A stretch of DNA of 33,901 nucleotides from a virus (lineage: Duplodnaviria > Heunggongvirae > Uroviricota > Caudoviricetes), in IMG/VR virus record IMGVR_UViG_2671180699_000001, positions 1 to 33,901 of that record, one strand, 5' to 3'. Under the pieces are notes generated by a model, which worked only from the letters and a program-made list of their open reading frames with translations, was not told the origin of the DNA and made no database searches. Numbering within the stretch: the first letter of the stretch is position 1; each line of letters starts with the position of its first letter. A program made the position numbers and the translations under genes. Below, piece after piece: positions 2,711 through 17,630 of the stretch.

Positions 2711-2733
2711 AGAAAAAACCGCCATCAGGCGGC
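2711..2733 (-). terminator. Rho-independent terminator (minus strand) upstream of xis
   Basis: Stem CCGCC / GGCGG with 4-nt loop, followed on the minus strand by TTTTTTCT. Confidence 0.55.
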
Positions 2734-2905
2734 TTGGTGTTCTTTCAGTTCTTCAATTCGAATATTGGTTACGTCTGCATGTGCTATCTGCGCCCACAGC
2801 ATCCAGTGGTCATAGCAGTCGCTGATGTTCTCGGCTTCGATAACTCTGTTGAATGGTTCTCCATTCTATTCACCTGTGACTCGGAAGTGCATTTATCATC
2901 TCCAT

Positions 2906-2958
2906 AAAAAAACTCGCCGTAGCGAGTTCAGATAAAAGAAATCCTCGTCAGTGCGAGG
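2906..2958 (-). terminator. Two tandem hairpin terminators (minus strand)
   Basis: Stems CTCGC/GCGAG and CCTCG/CGAGG, each followed by a T-rich run on the minus strand. Confidence 0.5.
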
Positions 2959-3132
2959 ATGCTGTTCATTGCTGCTATACACTTTTTTGCTCTCAACGTA
3001 AGCGGTAGCCCATTCTGTTGGGTTGGTGCAGTTGCTTTTAGGAAATGCTATTTACCCCTTAAATGTCGGCTGAAAGAGCTAAAATCCATGCAAAAAATTT
3101 ACGCAATTTTGTGTATTATTGTGCAGTAAGTA

Positions 3133-3735
3133 ATGAGCTATTTTCTGCGCAAAAAATGGATGGTAAATTTGTCCGGGTCAGGAAAAATTTTATGGGCGCT
3201 AAACATGAAAAAAGATTCGTATCCTTATTTGATTTGCATGACAGTTTCAGGGCTGATCTTTATTTTCCTTTTCTTCTGGTGGCGGGCAGATATCTACAGG
3301 GTCACGTTTCTTAATCAGAGTATATCCCACTATTACATTCTGTTTAGCATGGGAATAGCTTTTCTGTTATCTCTGTTTTGGGTTAAGAAGGGGATAGTAA
3401 AACAAAGCGGCTGGAAGAGTCTGTCAGCATACCTTAAGGTTTATGCAGGGATGTGCATATTTGCTGGATTTTTTCTGATTATACCCCTTACGACACTAAC
3501 TTATTTTTTGCCTGGAGAGACATCGTCTTACGTTGCACCGTATCGGTATACTTCCGGTAGTTCAAAAAGTTGTTCTGGAGCTGAGGTGGATGACCCCGAT
3601 CTACATGAGAATATTCGCATTTGCTATCCGTATGGCAATTATGAGTACGATAATATTATCTATGTTGAAAAGAAAATTAATATATTAGGTGCGGTAGTGA
3701 CATATGCACAGACCGCGCGTGATGATACTGAATGA
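3133..3735 (+). CDS. Hypothetical integral membrane protein (3 predicted TM helices plus about 60-aa soluble C-terminal domain); moron gene
   Basis: 200-aa ORF on the strand opposite to the early-left operon; AT-rich; hydrophobic segments LICMTVSGLIFIFLFFWW, ILFSMGIAFLLSLFWV, VYAGMCIFAGFFLIIPLTTL. Confidence 0.55.
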   Translation: MSYFLRKKWMVNLSGSGKILWALNMKKDSYPYLICMTVSGLIFIFLFFWWRADIYRVTFLNQSISHYYILFSMGIAFLLSLFWVKKGIVKQSGWKSLSAYLKVYAGMCIFAGFFLIIPLTTLTYFLPGETSSYVAPYRYTSGSSKSCSGAEVDDPDLHENIRICYPYGNYEYDNIIYVEKKINILGAVVTYAQTARDDTE

Positions 3736-3770
3736 TATAGTATATAGCGGGCAAGTTTTAGTTAATTTAT

Positions 3771-3800
3771 CGAGGTAATATAATTTACCTCGACTCGTTT
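3771..3800 (+). terminator. Hairpin terminator after the membrane-protein gene
   Basis: 8-bp stem CGAGGTAA / TTACCTCG with loop TATAAT, followed by a moderately T-rich tract. Confidence 0.4.
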
Positions 3801-3945
3801 GTTCTGGTATTAATATTTCGCTTTACGACCGATTTTTATCTGATGATATCATGCGGTTTTCATATACTGACTTACTGTCTTTTCTCCGTTAGCGATTTTC
3901 TCCTGCTCAGCGATGATTTTATCTTTGGCTTCTAGTTAATTTCGC

Positions 3946-4167
3946 TCACTTCGAACCTCTCTGTTTACTGATAAGCTCCAGATCTTGCTGGCAACTGGCA
4001 CAAGTCCGACAACCCTGAACGGCCAGTCGTCTTCGTTCATCTATCGGATCGCCACACTCACAACAATGAGTGGCAGATATAGCCTGGTGGTTCAGGCGGC
4101 GCATTTTTATTGCTGTGTTGCGCTGTAATTCTTCAATTTCTGATGCTGAATCAATTATGTCTGCCAT
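3946..4167 (-). CDS. TraR/DksA-family C4 zinc-finger protein (73 aa)
   Basis: CxxC-x17-CxxC (CECGDPIDERRRLAVQGCRTCASC) with TraR-like size and position in the early-left operon. Confidence 0.8.
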   Translation of the reverse strand: MADIIDSASEIEELQRNTAIKMRRLNHQAISATHCCECGDPIDERRRLAVQGCRTCASCQQDLELISKQRGSK

Positions 4168-4910: not shown

Positions 4911-5581
4911 TGCTCCCCATATACAAAACCAATTTCAGCCAGTGCCTCGTCCATTTTTTCGATGAACTCCGGCACCATCTCGTCAAAACTCGCCATGTAC
5001 TTTTCATTCCGCTCAACCACGACGTAATGCAGGCCTTCACGCTTCATGCGCGGGTCATAGTTGGCAAAGTACCAGGCATCTTTTCGCGTCACCCACATGC
5101 TGTACTGCACCTGGGCCATGTAAGCCGATTTTATTGCCTCGAAACCACCGAGCCGGAATTTCATGAAATCCCGGGAGGTAAACGGGCATTTCAGTTCAAG
5201 GCCGTTGCCGTCACTGCATAAACCATCGGGAGAGCAGGCGGTGCGCATATTTTCGTCGCGATAGATGATCGGGGATTCAGTAATATTCACGCCGGAAGTG
5301 AATTCAAACAGGGTTCTGGCGTCGTTCTCGTACTGTTTTCCCCAGGCCAGCGCCTTAGCATTAACTTCCGGAGCCACACCGGTGCAAACCTCAGCCAGCA
5401 GGGTGTGGAAGTAGGACATTTTCATGTCAGGCCACTTCTTTCCTGAGCGGGGCTTTGCTATCACGTTGTGAACTTCTGAAGCGGTGATGACGCCGAGCCG
5501 TAATTTGTGCCATGCATCATCCCCCTGTTCGACAACTCTCACGTCGATCCCGGTACGCTGCAGGATAATGTCCGGTGTCAT
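4901..5581 (-). CDS. exo: Lambda exonuclease (Red alpha, 226 aa)
   Basis: [15 protein letters not shown]…GEQWQ, as recalled for lambda Exo, same length. Confidence 0.97.
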
Positions 5582-6363
5582 GCTGCCACCTTCTGCTCAG
5601 TGGCTTTCTGTTTAAGGAATCCAAGAGCTTTCACTGCTTCGGCCTGTGTCAGTTCTGACGATGCGCGAATGTCGCGGCGAAATATCTGGGAACAGAGCGG
5701 CAATAAGTCGTCATCCCATGTTTTATCCAGGGCGATCAGCAGAGTGTTAATCTCCTGCATGGTTTCATCGTTAACCGGAGTGATGTCGCGTTCCGGCTGA
5801 CGTTCTGCAGTGTATGCAGTATTTTCGACAATGCGCTCGGCTTCATCCTTGTCATAGATACCAGCAAATCCGAAGGCCAGACGGGCACACTGAATCATGG
5901 CTTTATGCCGTAACATCCGTTTGGGATGCGACTGCCACGGCCCCGTGATTTCTCTGCCTTCGCGGGTTTTGAATGGTTCGCGGCGGCATTCATCCATCCA
6001 CTCGGTAACGCAGATCGGATGATTGCGGTCTTTGCGGTAAATCCGGCATGTGCAGGATTCGTTGTCCTGTTCAAAGTCCATGCCGTCAAACTGCTGGTTT
6101 TCGTTGATGATGCGGGACCAGCCATCAACGCCCACCACCGGAACGATGCCGTTCTGCTTATCAGGGAAGGCGTAAATTTCTTTCGTCCACGGATTAAGAC
6201 CGTACTGGTTGGCGACGATCAGCAATGCGATGAACTGCGCATCGCTGGCATCACCTTTAAATGCCGTCTGGCGAAGAGTGGTGATCAGTTCCTGTGGGTC
6301 GACAGAATCCATGCCGACTCGTTCAGCCAGCTTCCCAGCCAGCGTTGCGAGTGCTGTACTCAT
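5578..6363 (-). CDS. bet: Bet single-strand annealing protein (Red beta, 261 aa)
   Basis: [37 protein letters not shown]…, as recalled for lambda Bet; ATGA overlap with exo. Confidence 0.97.
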
Positions 6364-6368
6364 CCGTT

Positions 6369-6665
6369 TTATACCTCTGAATCAATATCAACCTGGTGGT
6401 GAGCAATGGTTTCAACCATGTACCGGATGTGTTCTGCCATGCGCTCCTGAAACTCAACATCGTCATCAAACGCACGGGTAATGGCTTTTTTGCTGACCCC
6501 GTGGCGTTGCAAATGATCGATGCATAGCGATTCAAACAGGTGCTGGGGCAGGCCTTTTTCCATGTCGTCTGCCAGTTCTGCCTCTTTCTCTTCACGGGCG
6601 ATCTGCTGGTAGTGACGCGCCCAGCTCTGAGCCTCAAGACGATCCTGAATGTAATAAGCGTTCAT
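6369..6665 (-). CDS. gam: Gam, RecBCD inhibitor (98-aa short form)
   Basis: [21 protein letters not shown]…VDIDSEV, as recalled for lambda GamS; an in-frame TAA about 15 codons upstream excludes the long form. Confidence 0.93.
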
Positions 6666-6740: not shown

Positions 6741-7151
6741 TTAGTGATTCAGGCCGTTACCGCGTCCGTCGAGAAAAACTTCTACGAGCAAATCACGGGT
6801 ATAAGTGCGCTCGATGCCGCGATGCAGATAAAGCCGTCCGCGTAAATTAGCTGATGCAGTCCAGGTACCATCTTTGTGTTTGACCAGCATTCCTGGCATG
6901 ACCGCACCGCGATTAACGGTCTGCGTTCCGTAATGTTGATGAACCATAAAAACTCCTGCCCGTAAGCTGGGCTGCTGAACATATAGAGACTTCTGCGCGT
7001 ATTCAGGCGGTGGATGGCCGCCGGTTGTCATAACTAAGCCGCCTCGTTGAAGCGACTGAGGTATAAAGTGTTGTGTTGATTTCAGCTGGTCACACCGACG
7101 TTCACGCGTCCGTTTCACCCCTCGCACTCCCCGAAGCCTGCTGAAATTCAA
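6741..7151 (-). CDS. First ORF of the pL operon, hypothetical; Arg-rich N-terminus (KRTRERR) in the N-antiterminator position, C-terminal part in the kil position
   Basis: Track ORF 136 aa with non-ATG start; internal ATG with GAGG upstream at 7031 would give 96 aa; no confident family assignment. Confidence 0.35.
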
Positions 7152-7169
7152 ACTGCGGATCTAAGCGGT

Positions 7170-7219
7170 CATCGCAACGGTGAAACAGGTGGTTACCGTA
7201 TCGTTGTGTCGTTGCGATG
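7170..7219. repeat. Perfect 10-bp inverted repeat (CATCGCAACG … CGTTGCGATG) with 30-nt spacer in the pL leader
   Basis: Read directly; lies immediately downstream of the putative pL -10 on the minus strand. Confidence 0.7.
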
Positions 7220-7225
7220 AATTTA

Positions 7226-7262
7226 ATTTAAAACTATAGTTGTTTTATCGTCAACAACAAAA
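7226..7262 (-). promoter_or_regulatory. Putative pL promoter with overlapping operator (oL)
   Basis: Minus strand -35 TTGACG, 17-bp spacer, -10 TTAAAT; operator TTGTTGTTGAC-N6-AAAACAAC closely matches the oR site. Confidence 0.45.
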
Positions 7263-7387
7263 GTTGTTTTGTCGGTTGTTTTAAATATAACTGGTTGTAT
7301 TTAGGATGGATTTATTTTGTGACTTGCATCGCATAGCGATAACTGAAGTGAGGTGTGGTGGTTTTTTGGACGGTATGAGTTATGAGG

Positions 7388-7420
7388 GGGAGGAAAAGAA
7401 AACCCGGCGCGGTTGCCGGG
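7388..7420 (-). terminator. Rho-independent terminator after the lipoprotein gene (tImm-like)
   Basis: Stem CCCGGC / GCCGGG with 6-nt loop, followed on the minus strand by TTTTCTTTTCC. Confidence 0.6.
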
Positions 7421-7428
7421 TATGATTA

Positions 7429-7809
7429 TCAGTCAGCCCAACCTGATTTCGAGTTTATTTGGGTTTCTGACATTGTGTATTTCTTAATCGTGTCATCGTT
7501 AAAAAGAATAGTAAGTTCTTTTTTCGTACCGTTCGTTCCATTATGGAATAATCCATAGAATGGAATAAAAGTGGTGCCATTAACTTTTACTTTTGCAAAG
7601 GCGTACTTCCAGATCTCGTTTCCACTGTCAGTATATGAAACAGCATCAGGAGAACCAAAGTAAGATTTAACCTCATTCTTGGTTGTTTTACCTTCCTGAA
7701 GTTTAGACTGGACACTAATTTCAGTTTCATTTTTGAGTTGCTGGTTGCCTGAAGAAGCACACCCAGCCAATACAGATGCCATCATGGCAGCGATTAGGAT
7801 TTTTCTCAT
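7429..7809 (-). CDS. Lipoprotein (126 aa) encoded downstream of cI in the rexAB position
   Basis: Signal peptide with lipobox LAGC (MRKILIAAMMASVLAGCASS); AT-rich; co-oriented with and immediately downstream of the repressor gene. Confidence 0.8.
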   Translation of the reverse strand: MRKILIAAMMASVLAGCASSGNQQLKNETEISVQSKLQEGKTTKNEVKSYFGSPDAVSYTDSGNEIWKYAFAKVKVNGTTFIPFYGLFHNGTNGTKKELTILFNDDTIKKYTMSETQINSKSGWAD

Positions 7810-8038
7810 TTTATGTTTCCATTCATTATAATCAGAAACATCTTAACATAATGATTCGAAATAAAAACCGCTACGAGATAGGGGGACATTTTGCTGACAG
7901 TAGCAACAAATCTCAGCTAACAACGAGAATATTTACTGAAATATGCAAACAGATTTGGCGTTCTTATAGAGAATTTAGTGCAATATCTAATCCGAGTGGT
8001 ATAAACCTTAACCTTCGCTCCCTTAAGTCGTAGATAAA

Positions 8039-8728
8039 TTAACCATGCTTCCTGTACGTCTGCGGCATGCTTCCAATGACCTTACCGAATATGAACACCC
8101 GGTTCATCTCGTCTTTCTCGATCGGGTCCCACGGCGAGTAGCTCTTGTTATCAGAGATAACCAGCAGCTTATCCTTCATCATTTGAAGACGTTTTACATG
8201 GGCAGTGTCGTCGTACAGAAACGCATAGATGCCATCACCGTCGAAAGATTTAACAGTGATATCAACGAACAGCAGGTCACCTGGTTCGATCGTCCCTGAC
8301 ATGCTGTCACCTCGCACGTTAATGATGCGGATATTTTCCGCCTTCCTGCCATCGAACATGTGACGAGCATCGTCAAACGAGTACTCAACCGAGCGTAGAA
8401 CTTCTACAAACTCACGGTTGATTACACCTGGCCCGGCACTGACTTCTATATCAAGAACGTCAATTTTGAAGTATTTGGAATGGCTGACAGTTGATTGTAT
8501 TGGTTGCACTGTACTGTCTGACATATTTCCAACGCCAGAAGATAACCATTCTGCGCGCACACCCAAAGCGTTCGCGATCTCCACGATTTTAGTTGTTTGG
8601 TTAGCTTTCCCTGTTTCGATTTTCTGAATAGCAGCCTGGCTAACCCCGACCAAATCCCCAAGCGCCTTTTGTGTAAGGCCTCGCGCTAATCTGGCTTCTT
8701 TAAGTCTTTCTGAGAGTGTTGTTTTCAT
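8039..8728 (-). CDS. cI: CI-type prophage repressor (HTH_XRE N-terminal domain plus S24 LexA-like peptidase domain, 229 aa)
   Basis: HTH (LTQKALGDLVGVSQAAIQKIE), Ala-Gly cleavage site (SAGPG), catalytic Ser (GDSMSG) and Lys (HVKRL). Confidence 0.93.
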   Translation of the reverse strand: MKTTLSERLKEARLARGLTQKALGDLVGVSQAAIQKIETGKANQTTKIVEIANALGVRAEWLSSGVGNMSDSTVQPIQSTVSHSKYFKIDVLDIEVSAGPGVINREFVEVLRSVEYSFDDARHMFDGRKAENIRIINVRGDSMSGTIEPGDLLFVDITVKSFDGDGIYAFLYDDTAHVKRLQMMKDKLLVISDNKSYSPWDPIEKDEMNRVFIFGKVIGSMPQTYRKHG

Positions 8729-8767: not shown

Positions 8768-8803
8768 AAATGGTTGTTGACTAAAAACAACCATAGTTTT
8801 AAT
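8768..8803 (+). promoter_or_regulatory. oR operator with pR promoter; divergent cI/cro control region
   Basis: Inverted repeat ATGGTTGTT-N7-AACAACCAT overlapping -35 TTGACT, 17-bp spacer, -10 TAATCT; GGAGG Shine-Dalgarno before cro. Confidence 0.6.
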
Positions 8804-8832: not shown

Positions 8833-9063
8833 ATGAACCCAGCAATCAAAACAGCGATCAATATCGTTGGTTCACAAAAGAAACTAGGCGATGCCTGCGA
8901 AGTTTCACAGCAGGCCGTCTATAAGTGGCTTCACAACAAAGCAAAGGTATCCCCTGAACATGTCGGCAGCATTGTTACGGCTACTGGTGGAGTTGTGAAG
9001 GCATACCAGATTCGCCCGGATCTTCCGAAGTTGTTTCCACACACCGAAAAGAACGCAGCTTAA
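8833..9063 (+). CDS. cro: Cro-like HTH regulator (76 aa)
   Basis: Small HTH protein (…CEVSQQAVYKWL…) divergent from the repressor. Confidence 0.8.
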   Translation: MNPAIKTAINIVGSQKKLGDACEVSQQAVYKWLHNKAKVSPEHVGSIVTATGGVVKAYQIRPDLPKLFPHTEKNAA

Positions 9064-12040: not shown

Positions 12041-13459
12041 TTAGAAAATAATGTTTGCTATATCCGAGATAGCATTTAAAGAACCTCTGTGGTCACTTCC
12101 TGTTTTAGGTAAAATATAGGAATATCGAGGGTCTTCATTATATGTTAACTTCCAGTGTTTTCCATCGCTTGACGCACTGAAACCTAAGTCCTTTAAATTT
12201 CTTTGTGTTGCGCTATCCATGCTTCTGTAACCTGTTAAAGTCCTTTTAAGTAATTGGCGGCGACTCTCGGTTTCTTTATTGTATTCATTATTGGCAATTA
12301 GGGATGATAAGATATGGTAGCTTCTACCAAATTCATTTTTATTTTTTATGGCAGTTTTTAGTGCGTCAATAATTATATTTTTGATTTCTCCATCAAAAAA
12401 ATCAGTCTCTTCACCAGCATTAAGCACAATGCTTCCTTGGGCTGAAGCTTGTGATTGAAGAGTGCGTACTCTGTGCTCTAAAGAGGAGATCTTATGCTTA
12501 AGATCTTCTATTTGGTCATCTTTCGCAACATTATCGGCTTCGTAAAGCGCCATCAGTTCGCGTGTGTATTCTCCTCTTTCTTTGAGTGAGTTAATAGAGT
12601 CTTTCGTTTTTCTGGTTTGTATCTCACTCCATCCACTATCTGAGACAGGAGCCATTGTAGTCGTAGCTCTTACAACATCATCAAATAACTCATCTTCAAA
12701 TTCTTTTGCGGTTTTCTCACCACGGCGATAAAAACTGATATTTTGACCCCGTGGCCAATAGATACCAACAGCACCAGCATAGGCATTTTTAGCATTTGTC
12801 TCATTTTTTAGCTTAATAGAAAATAGTCTATTGCTAGGCTCAATTAATACATGTGCTAATCCGCATACCTTTCTTGCAAGGCGTTCTGGGATGATATTGT
12901 GAGCATGTTCATTAAAAAAATACTTGGAGCTAACGTATATTATTGGTAGTCTGTTGTCAGTTTCACCATTTATAACTTTAGCTGCTATATTTAAATGTTC
13001 ATCAGTATCATCTAAGGAATGAGGTTCGACTGACACCTTGAAAATATCATCAAGACCACCAGAAAATTTATCAATCAATCTCATAACAACTAATGGTTTC
13101 TTAGGTTGCGGGGCTAGATAAGCTGCATCTTGGCTTACAACGCTAGATTCCACCTGAATCCACATGGTATCAGTTTTGAGATTTTTATTAATTGAAATAT
13201 CTGTTACCCATTTGTGTGGCTCAGATATTTTCGAATACCTAAAACAGCCTAAACTAGTATCTTTGTTTTTATAAGTTATTATATCAATTCTTTCATTTTT
13301 AGACTCTATGAAGTACTCCTCGCTTTTATAATCACATACTAATTGTGCTGGAATAAAAGTTGTATGTGGTGAGTCGTTTACCCAAGAAAAACATTCATTA
13401 AAGATCTCAGCTAGAGATGTGGAGTTTGAAACATAAAAACCAGTTGAGAAATATTTCAT
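12041..13459 (-). CDS. Orphan 472-aa protein in the ren-nin insertion; function unknown, candidate anti-phage/abortive-infection protein
   Basis: Long uninterrupted ORF on the strand opposite to the replication/nin operon; low GC; central coiled-coil (EDLKHKISSLEHRVRTLQSQ); no TM helices, no Walker A seen. Confidence 0.75.
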   Translation of the reverse strand: MKYFSTGFYVSNSTSLAEIFNECFSWVNDSPHTTFIPAQLVCDYKSEEYFIESKNERIDIITYKNKDTSLGCFRYSKISEPHKWVTDISINKNLKTDTMWIQVESSVVSQDAAYLAPQPKKPLVVMRLIDKFSGGLDDIFKVSVEPHSLDDTDEHLNIAAKVINGETDNRLPIIYVSSKYFFNEHAHNIIPERLARKVCGLAHVLIEPSNRLFSIKLKNETNAKNAYAGAVGIYWPRGQNISFYRRGEKTAKEFEDELFDDVVRATTTMAPVSDSGWSEIQTRKTKDSINSLKERGEYTRELMALYEADNVAKDDQIEDLKHKISSLEHRVRTLQSQASAQGSIVLNAGEETDFFDGEIKNIIIDALKTAIKNKNEFGRSYHILSSLIANNEYNKETESRRQLLKRTLTGYRSMDSATQRNLKDLGFSASSDGKHWKLTYNEDPRYSYILPKTGSDHRGSLNAISDIANIIF

Positions 13460-16849: not shown

Positions 16850-17212
16850 ATTAATATTAAATCGGATTATTTTTAGCGCTGAATGTGAAATTTAAATAAA
16901 AAGGACTCTTCCATGAGTCAAAATCCTTGAAATCTTAAGGGTAAGATAAAAGGTCATTAGACAGAATGACACGTTTTATTAATAAATAAAGCTATTGTTT
17001 CATTCGTGTGTTTTTCTTTACAAAAGTAATCCTTGCTATGGTTGGTTAATCATGCGTTAATGGTGTTCTGGTTTGTTACAAAATTATCTGAAGCAGTCAT
17101 TGTTATAATTTTATTATTTGTACCTCTTGAGATTTCCTTGTTGGTTTTTCTCTCTGATATTTTTTTTCGGACCATTCTGCCCAAGGGCTAACTTCTTCAA
17201 AAGGTAATAATG

Positions 17213-17425
17213 ATGTCTAACAAAATGACTGGTTTAGTGAAATGGTTTAACCCTGAAAAAGGTTTTGGTTTCATCACGCCGAAAGATGGTAGCAAAGATG
17301 TGTTTGTCCATTTCTCAGCTATTCAGAGCAACGATTTCAAAACGTTAACTGAGAATCAGGAAGTCGAATTTGGTATTGAGAACGGACCTAAAGGCCCCGC
17401 GGCTGTTCATGTTGTGGCACTTTGA
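17213..17425 (+). CDS. cspI: Cold-shock protein (CspA family; CspI-like)
   Basis: [38 protein letters not shown]… with RNP1/RNP2 motifs. Confidence 0.93.
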
Positions 17426-17630
17426 GGTAGAAAATATTACAAACCATATTCACTTTAGATGCCCGTGTTGCCATGGTTCTCAGTATAGAACATCATCTTT
17501 TGATGTTTCTGACAGGAATCCTTTCGGGGCAAAATGTATCTTTTGTAAATCAATGATGATTACATTTGATAATATTTCACAATACTTAAATGTTAGCCGT
17601 CTATCGTTAGATTTAAGAAAGTGAAAATGA

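Follow-up and report, generated by a model that had tools for sequence, protein, structure and literature searches.

Envelope proteins expressed in a lysogen decide which phages, toxins and host defences the bacterium withstands; what, then, does a prophage carry when its repressor gene is directly followed by a single 381-bp gene for a lipoprotein? This question is raised by positions 7429-7809 (minus strand) of the IMG/VR record IMGVR_UViG_2671180699_000001, a Caudoviricetes sequence of 33,901 nt that was analysed in its whole length and is referred to hereafter as the window. We propose that this gene is the cargo of an autonomous moron, and that the predicted outer-membrane lipoprotein of BamE fold which it encodes probably alters the envelope of the lysogen, most likely keeping other phages out. 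The family to which it belongs is widespread, strongly conserved and catalogued, yet uncharacterised and often misnamed in RefSeq. A complete promoter-gene-terminator cassette, as predicted here, that recurs in the two slots of prophages known above all for exclusion genes constitutes a candidate for a new entry-blocking mechanism, and the fold points to an interaction with the beta-barrel assembly machinery (BAM) or Omp85 machinery.

The lipoprotein gene and its product

The region 7429-7809 is a real gene under strong constraint. Close homologues (n = 228) were found in Escherichia, Citrobacter, Enterobacter, Cronobacter, Kluyvera, Leclercia and Serratia, and against copies from other genera the nonsynonymous divergence (dN) was 0.10-0.18, with the synonymous divergence (dS) saturated and four-fold sites 26-52% identical. 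Despite this saturation, the amino-acid identity between copies stays at 71-92%, and where dS was measurable the dN/dS ratio was about 0.05-0.06, indicating strong purifying selection. Of 5426 complete E. coli genomes, 69 carry the gene, in all cases in the chromosome. The window region is 99.8% identical over 2.4 kb to Escherichia phage PhiR26_1 (PV340555.1), whose record annotates the gene as 'hypothetical protein / putative lipoprotein'.

An initial annotation of this DNA had described a 126-aa open reading frame (ORF) with the lipobox LAGC, and this was borne out on the minus strand, with Cys17 as the residue predicted to be lipidated. The translated N-terminus, MRKILIAAMMASVLAGC, has the features of a bacterial lipoprotein signal peptide, namely a positive n-region, a 10-residue hydrophobic core and the lipobox L-A-G-C (predicted as MRK-ILIAAMMASV-LAGC); the lipobox and the CASxGN motif that follows it are kept in nearly all of 67 homologues across Proteobacteria. 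According to the sorting rule of E. coli, Asp at position +2 causes Lol avoidance. Here, residue +2 is Ala and residue +3 is Ser, conserved as C-A-S, and the absence of a Lol-avoidance Asp predicts sorting to the outer membrane. The mature lipoprotein would comprise 110 aa (12.2 kDa) with one Cys.

Profile comparisons place the lipoprotein as a distant member of the BamE domain superfamily, and it has the two-helix, three-strand BamE fold. Its own score against Pfam BamE (PF04355, SmpA_OmlA) was 21.8 bits (E 1.6e-4), below the gathering cut-off of 23.2; the assignment is made despite this sub-threshold query because 52 of 61 diverse family members match the same model at E<0.01 (best 4e-9) and the family profile aligned to E. 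coli BamE with a probability of 88.5% in hhalign. It is not, however, a BamE orthologue. BamE is encoded once per genome at the housekeeping chromosomal bamE locus, whereas the gene studied here sits in a prophage immunity region of a minority of E. coli genomes (the 69 of 5426 mentioned above) and the host keeps its own bamE. Furthermore, the N-terminal segment of the family differs from that of BamE, with C-A-S-x-G-N directly after the lipid anchor, and the family adds a FIP-containing hairpin of about 14 residues and a C-terminal extension; in the lipoprotein of the window these three parts read C-A-S-S-G-N, FIPFYGLF and SGWAD.

The names in use for this gene are heterogeneous. It matches PHROG 3135 ('unknown function') over its full length (E 2.9e-48; residues 1-124 against profile positions 1-114 of 114), and PGAP names the identical E. 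coli gene 'SEN1984 family lipoprotein', in the newest annotation only. Most RefSeq records of E. coli label it 'outer membrane protein assembly factor BamE' and one 'BamD'; judging from the scores given above, the 'BamE' label is a name over-transferred from a sub-threshold domain match. The SEN1984 family model was not among the matches from the local NCBIfam release, and the NCBIfam families Ag473, YgdI/YgdR and OsmE were rejected, as they gave weak, signal-peptide-driven matches far below their cut-offs. The BFVD matches were all to further SmpA/OmlA lipoproteins, likewise uncharacterised, from temperate Pseudomonas phages, and the family as a whole comprises 1332 clusters at 50% identity across Proteobacteria (E<=1e-3). 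SEN1984 itself, from the ROD21 island of S. Enteritidis, is assigned to the same family by the PGAP name of the identical E. coli gene and by PHROG 3135, and it has likewise been predicted as BamE-like by Phyre2 (PMC10655114). It is uncharacterised and lies on an excisable, mobilisable island, in contrast to the gene of the window, which adjoins a phage repressor. A literature search on the family names, PhiR26, BamE/SmpA/OmlA with prophage, and exclusion found no functional study of any family member.

The cI slot

The initial annotation had placed the gene downstream of and co-oriented with the repressor gene, with a strong terminator after it, and had compared its position with that of rexAB; both statements held. 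The features of the locus are collected in Table 1. In phage lambda, rexAB lies in the interval between cI and oL/pL. In the window, a pL-like promoter and operator are found to the left of the gene and cI to its right, and therefore the gene lies inside the immunity region, in the interval occupied by rexAB in lambda. The two correspond in position only, as no RexA/RexB family was among the Pfam, PHROG or PADLOC hits of the lipoprotein. The oL palindrome is AACAACaaaaGTTGTT (AACAAC-N4-GTTGTT, 7253-7268), and a related palindrome, ATGGTTGTT...AACAACCAT, is located in oR (8770-8794). The terminator hairpin, ACCCGGCAACCGCGCCGGGT followed by TTTTCTTTT (7421-7402, minus strand), starts 8 nt past the stop codon and folds with -14.1 kcal/mol (z -3.3 against shuffles).

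The rexAB comparison is reinforced by sister phages with the same cI, in which the slot between cI and pL is polymorphic. Three phages share the 3' end of cI and the segment from the terminator to pL, and two of them, PhiR34_1 and PhiR47_2, are without the lipoprotein gene: in exactly this slot PhiR47_2 carries the toxin-antitoxin pair GevT/GevA and PhiR34_1 a remnant only. The interval from cI to the terminator (window 7392-8038; PhiR47_2 locus 2729-4157; PhiR34_1) thus appears as a cargo hot spot. The slot content of PhiR34_1 is a deleted remnant of the GevT/GevA pair, and the cargo annotated in this slot of phages with the same cI also includes genes for a 'membrane carboxypeptidase', an 'ASCH domain' and a 'transmembrane protein'.

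Beyond these sister phages, the gene was found co-oriented downstream of a repressor in the prophage loci examined from E. coli (5), Citrobacter (4+1), Enterobacter (4+1) and Cronobacter (3), and the same arrangement occurs in prophages of Pseudocitrobacter, Pseudescherichia and Scandinavium and in Salmonella phage S107. In every cI-slot locus examined it is the last gene on its strand before the early-left genes (N or kil, followed by those for recombination). The repressors themselves fall into at least 7 groups that are less than 50% identical to each other, one of them being a 155-aa protein without the S24 domain, and the replication and recombination modules also vary among the carriers (O/P or DnaB; Bet/Exo, RecT/ExoVIII or Erf). 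Extra cargo is sometimes inserted between cI and the lipoprotein gene, namely an NYN-domain protein in Cronobacter, a 302-aa protein of unknown function in Citrobacter, and a pair of 136 and 90 aa.

Table 1. Features of the lipoprotein locus, in positions of the window
Feature	Position	Strand	Details
pL-like promoter and oL palindrome	7225..7268	-	TTGACG 7254-7249, 18 nt, TAAATT; left boundary of the immunity region
Intrinsic terminator	7392..7421	-	7-bp GC-rich stem, 6-nt loop, T-run; closes the immunity-region transcript; common to sister phages with other cargo
BamE-fold lipoprotein coding sequence	7429..7809	-	126 aa, stop codon included; PHROG 3135; PGAP name 'SEN1984 family lipoprotein'
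Signal peptide and lipobox	7759..7809	-	MRKILIAAMMASV-LAGC, lipidated Cys17 predicted, then motif C-A-S-x-G-N; from the sequence and homologue conservation
Conserved upstream block	7810..7855	-	Promoter and 5' untranslated region with GGA Shine-Dalgarno; travels with the gene; from conservation across copies
Predicted extended -10 promoter element	7840..7848	-	TGTTAAGAT; 31-39 nt upstream of ATG; conservation-based
Degenerate remnant of upstream hairpin and T-run	7868..7887	-	From alignment; -5.5 kcal/mol, z -0.4
cI-type repressor	8039..8728	-	HTH_3 and Peptidase_S24, 229 aa; 229 bp upstream of the lipoprotein gene, co-oriented
cro-like gene (YdaS/P22_Cro-like)	8833..9063	+	Diverges from cI

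The predicted cassette and its expression

The gene appears to bring its own expression signals. The 46 nt before the ATG are 71-83% identical among prophage copies of the gene that agree at only 26-52% of their four-fold sites; such identity between lineages with saturated synonymous sites indicates that this upstream block is under selection. Alignment of the copies gave the block consensus (C)AT-ATG-TTAAGAT-G-TTC(C/T)GATTGCAATCAATGGAAA, followed by ATG, and the predicted extended -10 element is kept as TGTTAAGAT or TGTTAGGAT in the E. coli, Salmonella, Citrobacter, Enterobacter, Cronobacter and Phytobacter copies. The block is only about 50% identical to a chromosomal copy (locus L024), where it is not conserved. 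A generic sigma-70 scan of 7810-8038 gave no minus-strand promoter hit, and the promoter call hence rests on its conservation across genera.

In the Salmonella, Citrobacter, Enterobacter and Cronobacter copies this block is preceded by a hairpin with a T-run, at about 50-80 nt from the ATG. Three of these hairpins were folded: that of Cronobacter gave -14.4 kcal/mol (z -3.5), that of Enterobacter -13.8, and that of Citrobacter a weak -9.4 (z -1.1). In view of the conserved promoter block and of the flanking hairpin terminators, the gene can be described as an autonomous, insulated moron unit, with a predicted promoter and terminator of its own and an expression in the lysogen that would be independent of pRM. 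The base composition of the gene (38% GC) and of the spacer (34%) deviates from that of the window (48%), and together with the terminator and the presence or absence of the gene between otherwise syntenic phages this is what is expected of a moron.

In the window itself, the upstream hairpin was assessed as a block to read-through from pRM and set aside, as it is degenerate there (Table 1). No other terminator was predicted between cI and the lipoprotein gene in the window, and therefore read-through from pRM or pRE can add to the expression of the gene. The earlier proposal that the gene is presumably co-transcribed with the repressor from pRM is consequently not well supported: such read-through is possible in the window, but it is not the conserved mode, since the copies share the promoter block.

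The Cronobacter cassette (locus L021) is flanked on both sides, at about 5920-5950 and 6397-6425, by the same hairpin, CCCGGCCACCGAGCCGGG with a T-run, and the terminator of the window, CCCGGCAACCGCGCCGGG, is a close variant of it. Repeated terminators of this kind may serve as recombination sites that move the cassette between phages and slots.

The tape-measure slot and other locations

A scan of the family that took one genome per species returned 67 loci. In 8 of them the homologue lies directly upstream of a tape-measure gene identified by PHROG, with a small ORF in between in three cases; the hosts are Phytobacter diazotrophicus (79% identical), Raoultella lignicola, Serratia bockelmannii, Biostraticola tofi, a Pantoea candidate species, Pectobacterium polonicum, Morganella morganii and Pseudidiomarina. 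The homologue of Klebsiella phage RAH1 also stands directly upstream of the tape-measure gene. The identity of these homologues is 42-79%, and since the tape-measure genes beside them belong to three different families (phrog_1107, 1538 and 2854), the association between lipoprotein and tape measure arose more than once. In this second slot the gene is likewise preceded by a hairpin and a TGnTAnnnT-like element, and it is followed by a strong terminator just before the start codon of the tape-measure gene. In Phytobacter, the tape-measure-slot copy keeps the promoter block of the cI-slot copies, which indicates that the whole cassette has moved between the cI and tape-measure slots.

The slot upstream of the tape measure is that of HK97 gene 15, the original 'moron', which encodes a superinfection-exclusion protein (PMC3594210). 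Like the lipoprotein cassette, HK97 gp15 is a self-contained moron with promoter and terminator, and relatives of the lipoprotein fill the exact gene 15 slot; moreover, gp15 derives from host yebO, and the lipoprotein family likewise has host chromosomal relatives. The two differ in that gp15 is a small inner-membrane protein, unrelated in sequence, and in that the window copy sits in the cI slot and not in the tail slot.

Two further phages have a family member elsewhere: it adjoins int in Pseudomonas phage Lodos, while in Alteromonas phage P24 it separates the head genes from the tail genes. Members outside phages are chromosomal and near a DEAD-box helicase gene in Buttiauxella and Dryocola, next to cstA in Nitrosomonas, on ROD21 in Salmonella (SEN1984), between atpG and atpD in four Moraxella species, and between a haemagglutinin-repeat TpsA protein and a ShlB/POTRA transporter in two Paraburkholderia species. 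In one Moraxella locus (L073, with the match at about 5001-5378 as in the others) the member lies in the ATP synthase operon, 21 nt upstream of atpD, which is odd for the gene of an outer-membrane lipoprotein; in the other three (L076, L083 and L093) a similar ORF of 473-474 aa follows 21-30 nt downstream of the lipoprotein gene. In one Paraburkholderia locus (L065, with the match at 5001-5369 as in L067) the order is a haemagglutinin-repeat (TpsA/BcpA-like) gene with an 86-aa ORF, the family member, and a ShlB/POTRA TpsB gene, and in the other (L067) a similar 587-aa ORF is found immediately downstream of the member. This placement corresponds to the 'O' position of the bcpAIOB loci for contact-dependent inhibition (CDI), in which, in Burkholderia, the lipoprotein BcpO (73-74 aa) is required for full activity of the secreted protein (PMC3415462). 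The Paraburkholderia copy was not adopted as a BcpO, given the length of the latter and a likeness that is one of position only.

Proposed function and alternative explanations

Other occupants of the cI slot have defence functions. Lambda rexA/rexB, BstA of Salmonella phage BTP1 and GevT/GevA of PhiR47_2 are, like the lipoprotein gene, cargo co-oriented with the repressor between cI and oL/pL and closed by the immunity-region terminator. Their products have no sequence or structural relation to the lipoprotein and are defences of the abortive-infection or toxin-antitoxin kind that work in the cytoplasm or inner membrane; unlike them, the gene described here encodes a single lipoprotein, predicted to be exported, and has a predicted promoter of its own. 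Cor and Llp are exclusion lipoproteins acting on FhuA. Lpp021 and Lpp010 of the mEpimmI phages are also exclusion lipoproteins, matched to OmpA and LamB users (PMC11893012). Most of the phage lipoproteins tested so far that are not part of a lysis cassette act in exclusion, and this may, by analogy, be taken as a precedent for such a role.

Our preferred reading, which we hold tentatively and regard as distinctly possible, is an autonomous moron whose product, a BamE-fold lipoprotein of the outer membrane, binds a conserved partner in the host envelope and thereby blocks the entry of phages. The cassette, with its own promoter, one gene and a terminator, would be expressed in the lysogen, and the lipoprotein would be located at the periplasmic face of the outer membrane. 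There it would bind a conserved component of the host envelope, either an outer-membrane protein or a machine, and the binding would block an early step of infection by other phages, i.e., adsorption or the passage of the tail tip, tape measure or DNA across the envelope. The outcome for the lysogen would be heterotypic superinfection exclusion. An anti-phage role at the level of the envelope is supported by the two slots, each of which is known for exclusion or defence genes, by the moron architecture and the placement predicted for the lipoprotein on the periplasmic side of the outer membrane, and by the fact that the BamE fold repeatedly binds or inhibits periplasmic or outer-membrane proteins (BamE on BamA/BamD, BLIP, BtiO). 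The very strong purifying selection, with dS saturated, argues for a partner that is a conserved host component rather than a variable, fast-evolving phage protein. The copies in the tape-measure slot may leave room for a link to the tape measure or to the DNA-entry step, as in gp15 or in Ltp. The target of Ltp is the tape-measure protein. Ltp itself, from Streptococcus thermophilus phage TP-J34, is described as a lysogeny-module lipoprotein with a role in superinfection exclusion (PMC3952083). Its site of action is a Gram-positive cell surface, and its fold is unrelated to that of the lipoprotein.

Several points weigh against this proposal. The literature search found no report of a phenotype, transcript or localisation for any family member, the PADLOC search of the lipoprotein gave no hit, and the GenBank record of PhiR26_1 names other defence genes and leaves this one hypothetical. 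The family is old and has members outside phages (Moraxella, Paraburkholderia, Nitrosomonas, Buttiauxella, Dryocola and ROD21), which argues that its ancestral role was not anti-phage. Both moron slots also take cargo that is not anti-phage, and the high conservation would fit a housekeeping-like role in the envelope equally well.

Among the alternatives, the masking of the phage's own receptor takes up the analogy with Llp and Cor that the initial annotation had drawn, and it is disfavoured by the present results. By inactivating the outer-membrane receptor used by the tail of this phage, such a lipoprotein would keep homologous phages from superinfecting and would shield released virions from cell debris; the explanation has in its favour that a temperate siphovirus is predicted to encode an outer-membrane lipoprotein, for which Cor, Llp and the Lpp021/Lpp010 pair are precedents. 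A co-variation of the gene with the receptor-binding tail protein would then be expected, and none was found. The C-terminal 250 aa of the PhiR26_1 J protein are at least 95% identical in 43 phage records (98-100% in the 25 listed), and among the Escherichia phage records only PhiR26_1 carries the lipoprotein; conversely, the lipoprotein is present in S107 together with a J protein whose C-terminus is unrelated beyond residue 837. The gene adjoins cI, about 30 kb from J, and rides with the immunity regions of phages that differ in replication and recombination modules (the comparison covering few of their tail genes), whereas the known receptor-matched lipoproteins are encoded in the structural cluster beside the tail genes (PMC11893012). 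T5 Llp, Cor of phi80, N15 and HK022, and Lpp021/Lpp010 all exclude phages via an outer-membrane receptor, are linked to tail or receptor-binding genes and match the receptor of their own phage; the lipoprotein gene is cI-linked and independent of the receptor-binding domain, and it has no sequence likeness to them. No Pfam or PHROG hit of the lipoprotein fell on the Cor or Llp families, and a tblastn search against 50,697 phage records returned only BamE-like relatives. We consider own-receptor masking highly improbable. Nearly the same can be said of an immunity function, in which the lipoprotein would directly inhibit a toxin acting in the periplasm, such as a type VI secretion system or CDI effector, a bacteriocin, or a phage or tail lysin, in the manner of BLIP and BtiO. 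The likeness to these two is in fold only, no cognate toxin gene adjoins the lipoprotein gene in the prophage contexts examined, and immunity proteins usually diversify, while this family is highly conserved; the explanation is very improbable.

A Bor- or OsmE-like factor for the fitness or virulence of the host, conferring stress tolerance, serum resistance or colonisation with no role between phages, is decidedly unlikely: the literature examined on SEN1984 reports no phenotype for it, and the repeated capture into two exclusion-gene slots would be left unexplained, though any moron could land there. We also regard as unlikely that the product is an accessory or mimic of BAM or Omp85 proteins, that is, a BamE paralogue which docks on BamA/BamD or on another POTRA-bearing Omp85 protein and retunes the assembly of outer-membrane proteins (e.g., prophage beta-barrel morons) or the conformation of BamA, with any effects on phages being secondary. 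The fold and the Paraburkholderia member next to an Omp85-family transporter keep this explanation alive. The sub-threshold Pfam score, the N-terminal segment, extra hairpin and C-terminal extension that set the family apart from BamE, and the presence of bamE in the hosts count against it, as does the fact that the carrier phages share no set of outer-membrane protein morons; the characterised BcpO proteins, of 73-74 aa, offer an analogy of position only. BamE itself changes the conformation or the surface loops of BamA. A more specific version, which we judge quite improbable, combines this property with exclusion: a phage-borne BamE mimic would dock from the periplasm on BAM or on an Omp85/POTRA protein and thereby shift the conformation and surface loops of BamA. 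If so, the lysogen would resist agents for which BamA is the receptor (short-tailed Stx phages, CDI toxins and certain bacteriocins), or its repertoire of outer-membrane proteins would be reset, and the mechanism would amount to an allosteric, Llp-like exclusion aimed at an essential machine and portable between the cI and tape-measure slots. An exclusion lipoprotein of BamE fold would be new, although exclusion lipoproteins as such are already known.

Additional observations in the window and in related loci

No N-like antiterminator gene was seen between the pL-like promoter (about 7225-7254) and kil (6742-6948), the interval of about 480 bp (6949-7428) being non-coding; related Cronobacter and Salmonella phages have N between pL and kil. 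The pL-kil leader starts with a hairpin of 10-bp stem, CATCGCAACG...CGTTGCGATG, at about 7165-7215. A put-like structured RNA that would take the place of N was looked for in the 480-nt leader, but the fold was no better than those of shuffles (z -0.9) and Rfam gave no hit.

After the lipoprotein terminator, the Citrobacter, Enterobacter and Cronobacter prophages have a convergent ORF of 63-74 aa that belongs to PHROG 3975, of unknown function (8413-8619 in L004, 6510-6722 in L017 and 6420-6611 in L021 of Cronobacter). It was rejected as an obligate partner of the lipoprotein, as it is absent from the window, where a 39-aa ORF with no PHROG match (7306-7425, plus strand) overlaps the terminator; S107 has another small ORF (PHROG 3946).

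At its left end (1-2489) the window begins with host ybhC (pectinesterase), followed by a lambda-type integrase gene (1419-2489), which indicates a prophage at the lambda attachment site. Near int, 3133-3735 (plus strand) encodes a predicted 200-aa membrane protein with no Pfam or PADLOC match. A full-length Rfam cspA thermoregulator (17055-17471, plus strand; 109.8 bits) precedes a gene for a 71-aa cold-shock protein (17210-17425, plus strand) inside the prophage; PhiR26_1 is not collinear here, the offset falling on rusA, ylcG and Q, and no csp is annotated in the PhiR26_1 record. In the nin region, downstream of P, a reverse ORF of 472 aa (12041-13459, minus strand) gave no Pfam hit and a weak PADLOC match to HEC-07 (E 1e-9). 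As PhiR26_1 has the defence gene PD-lambda-1 (SNIPE) at the matching place, this position looks like another defence hot spot with a different cargo.

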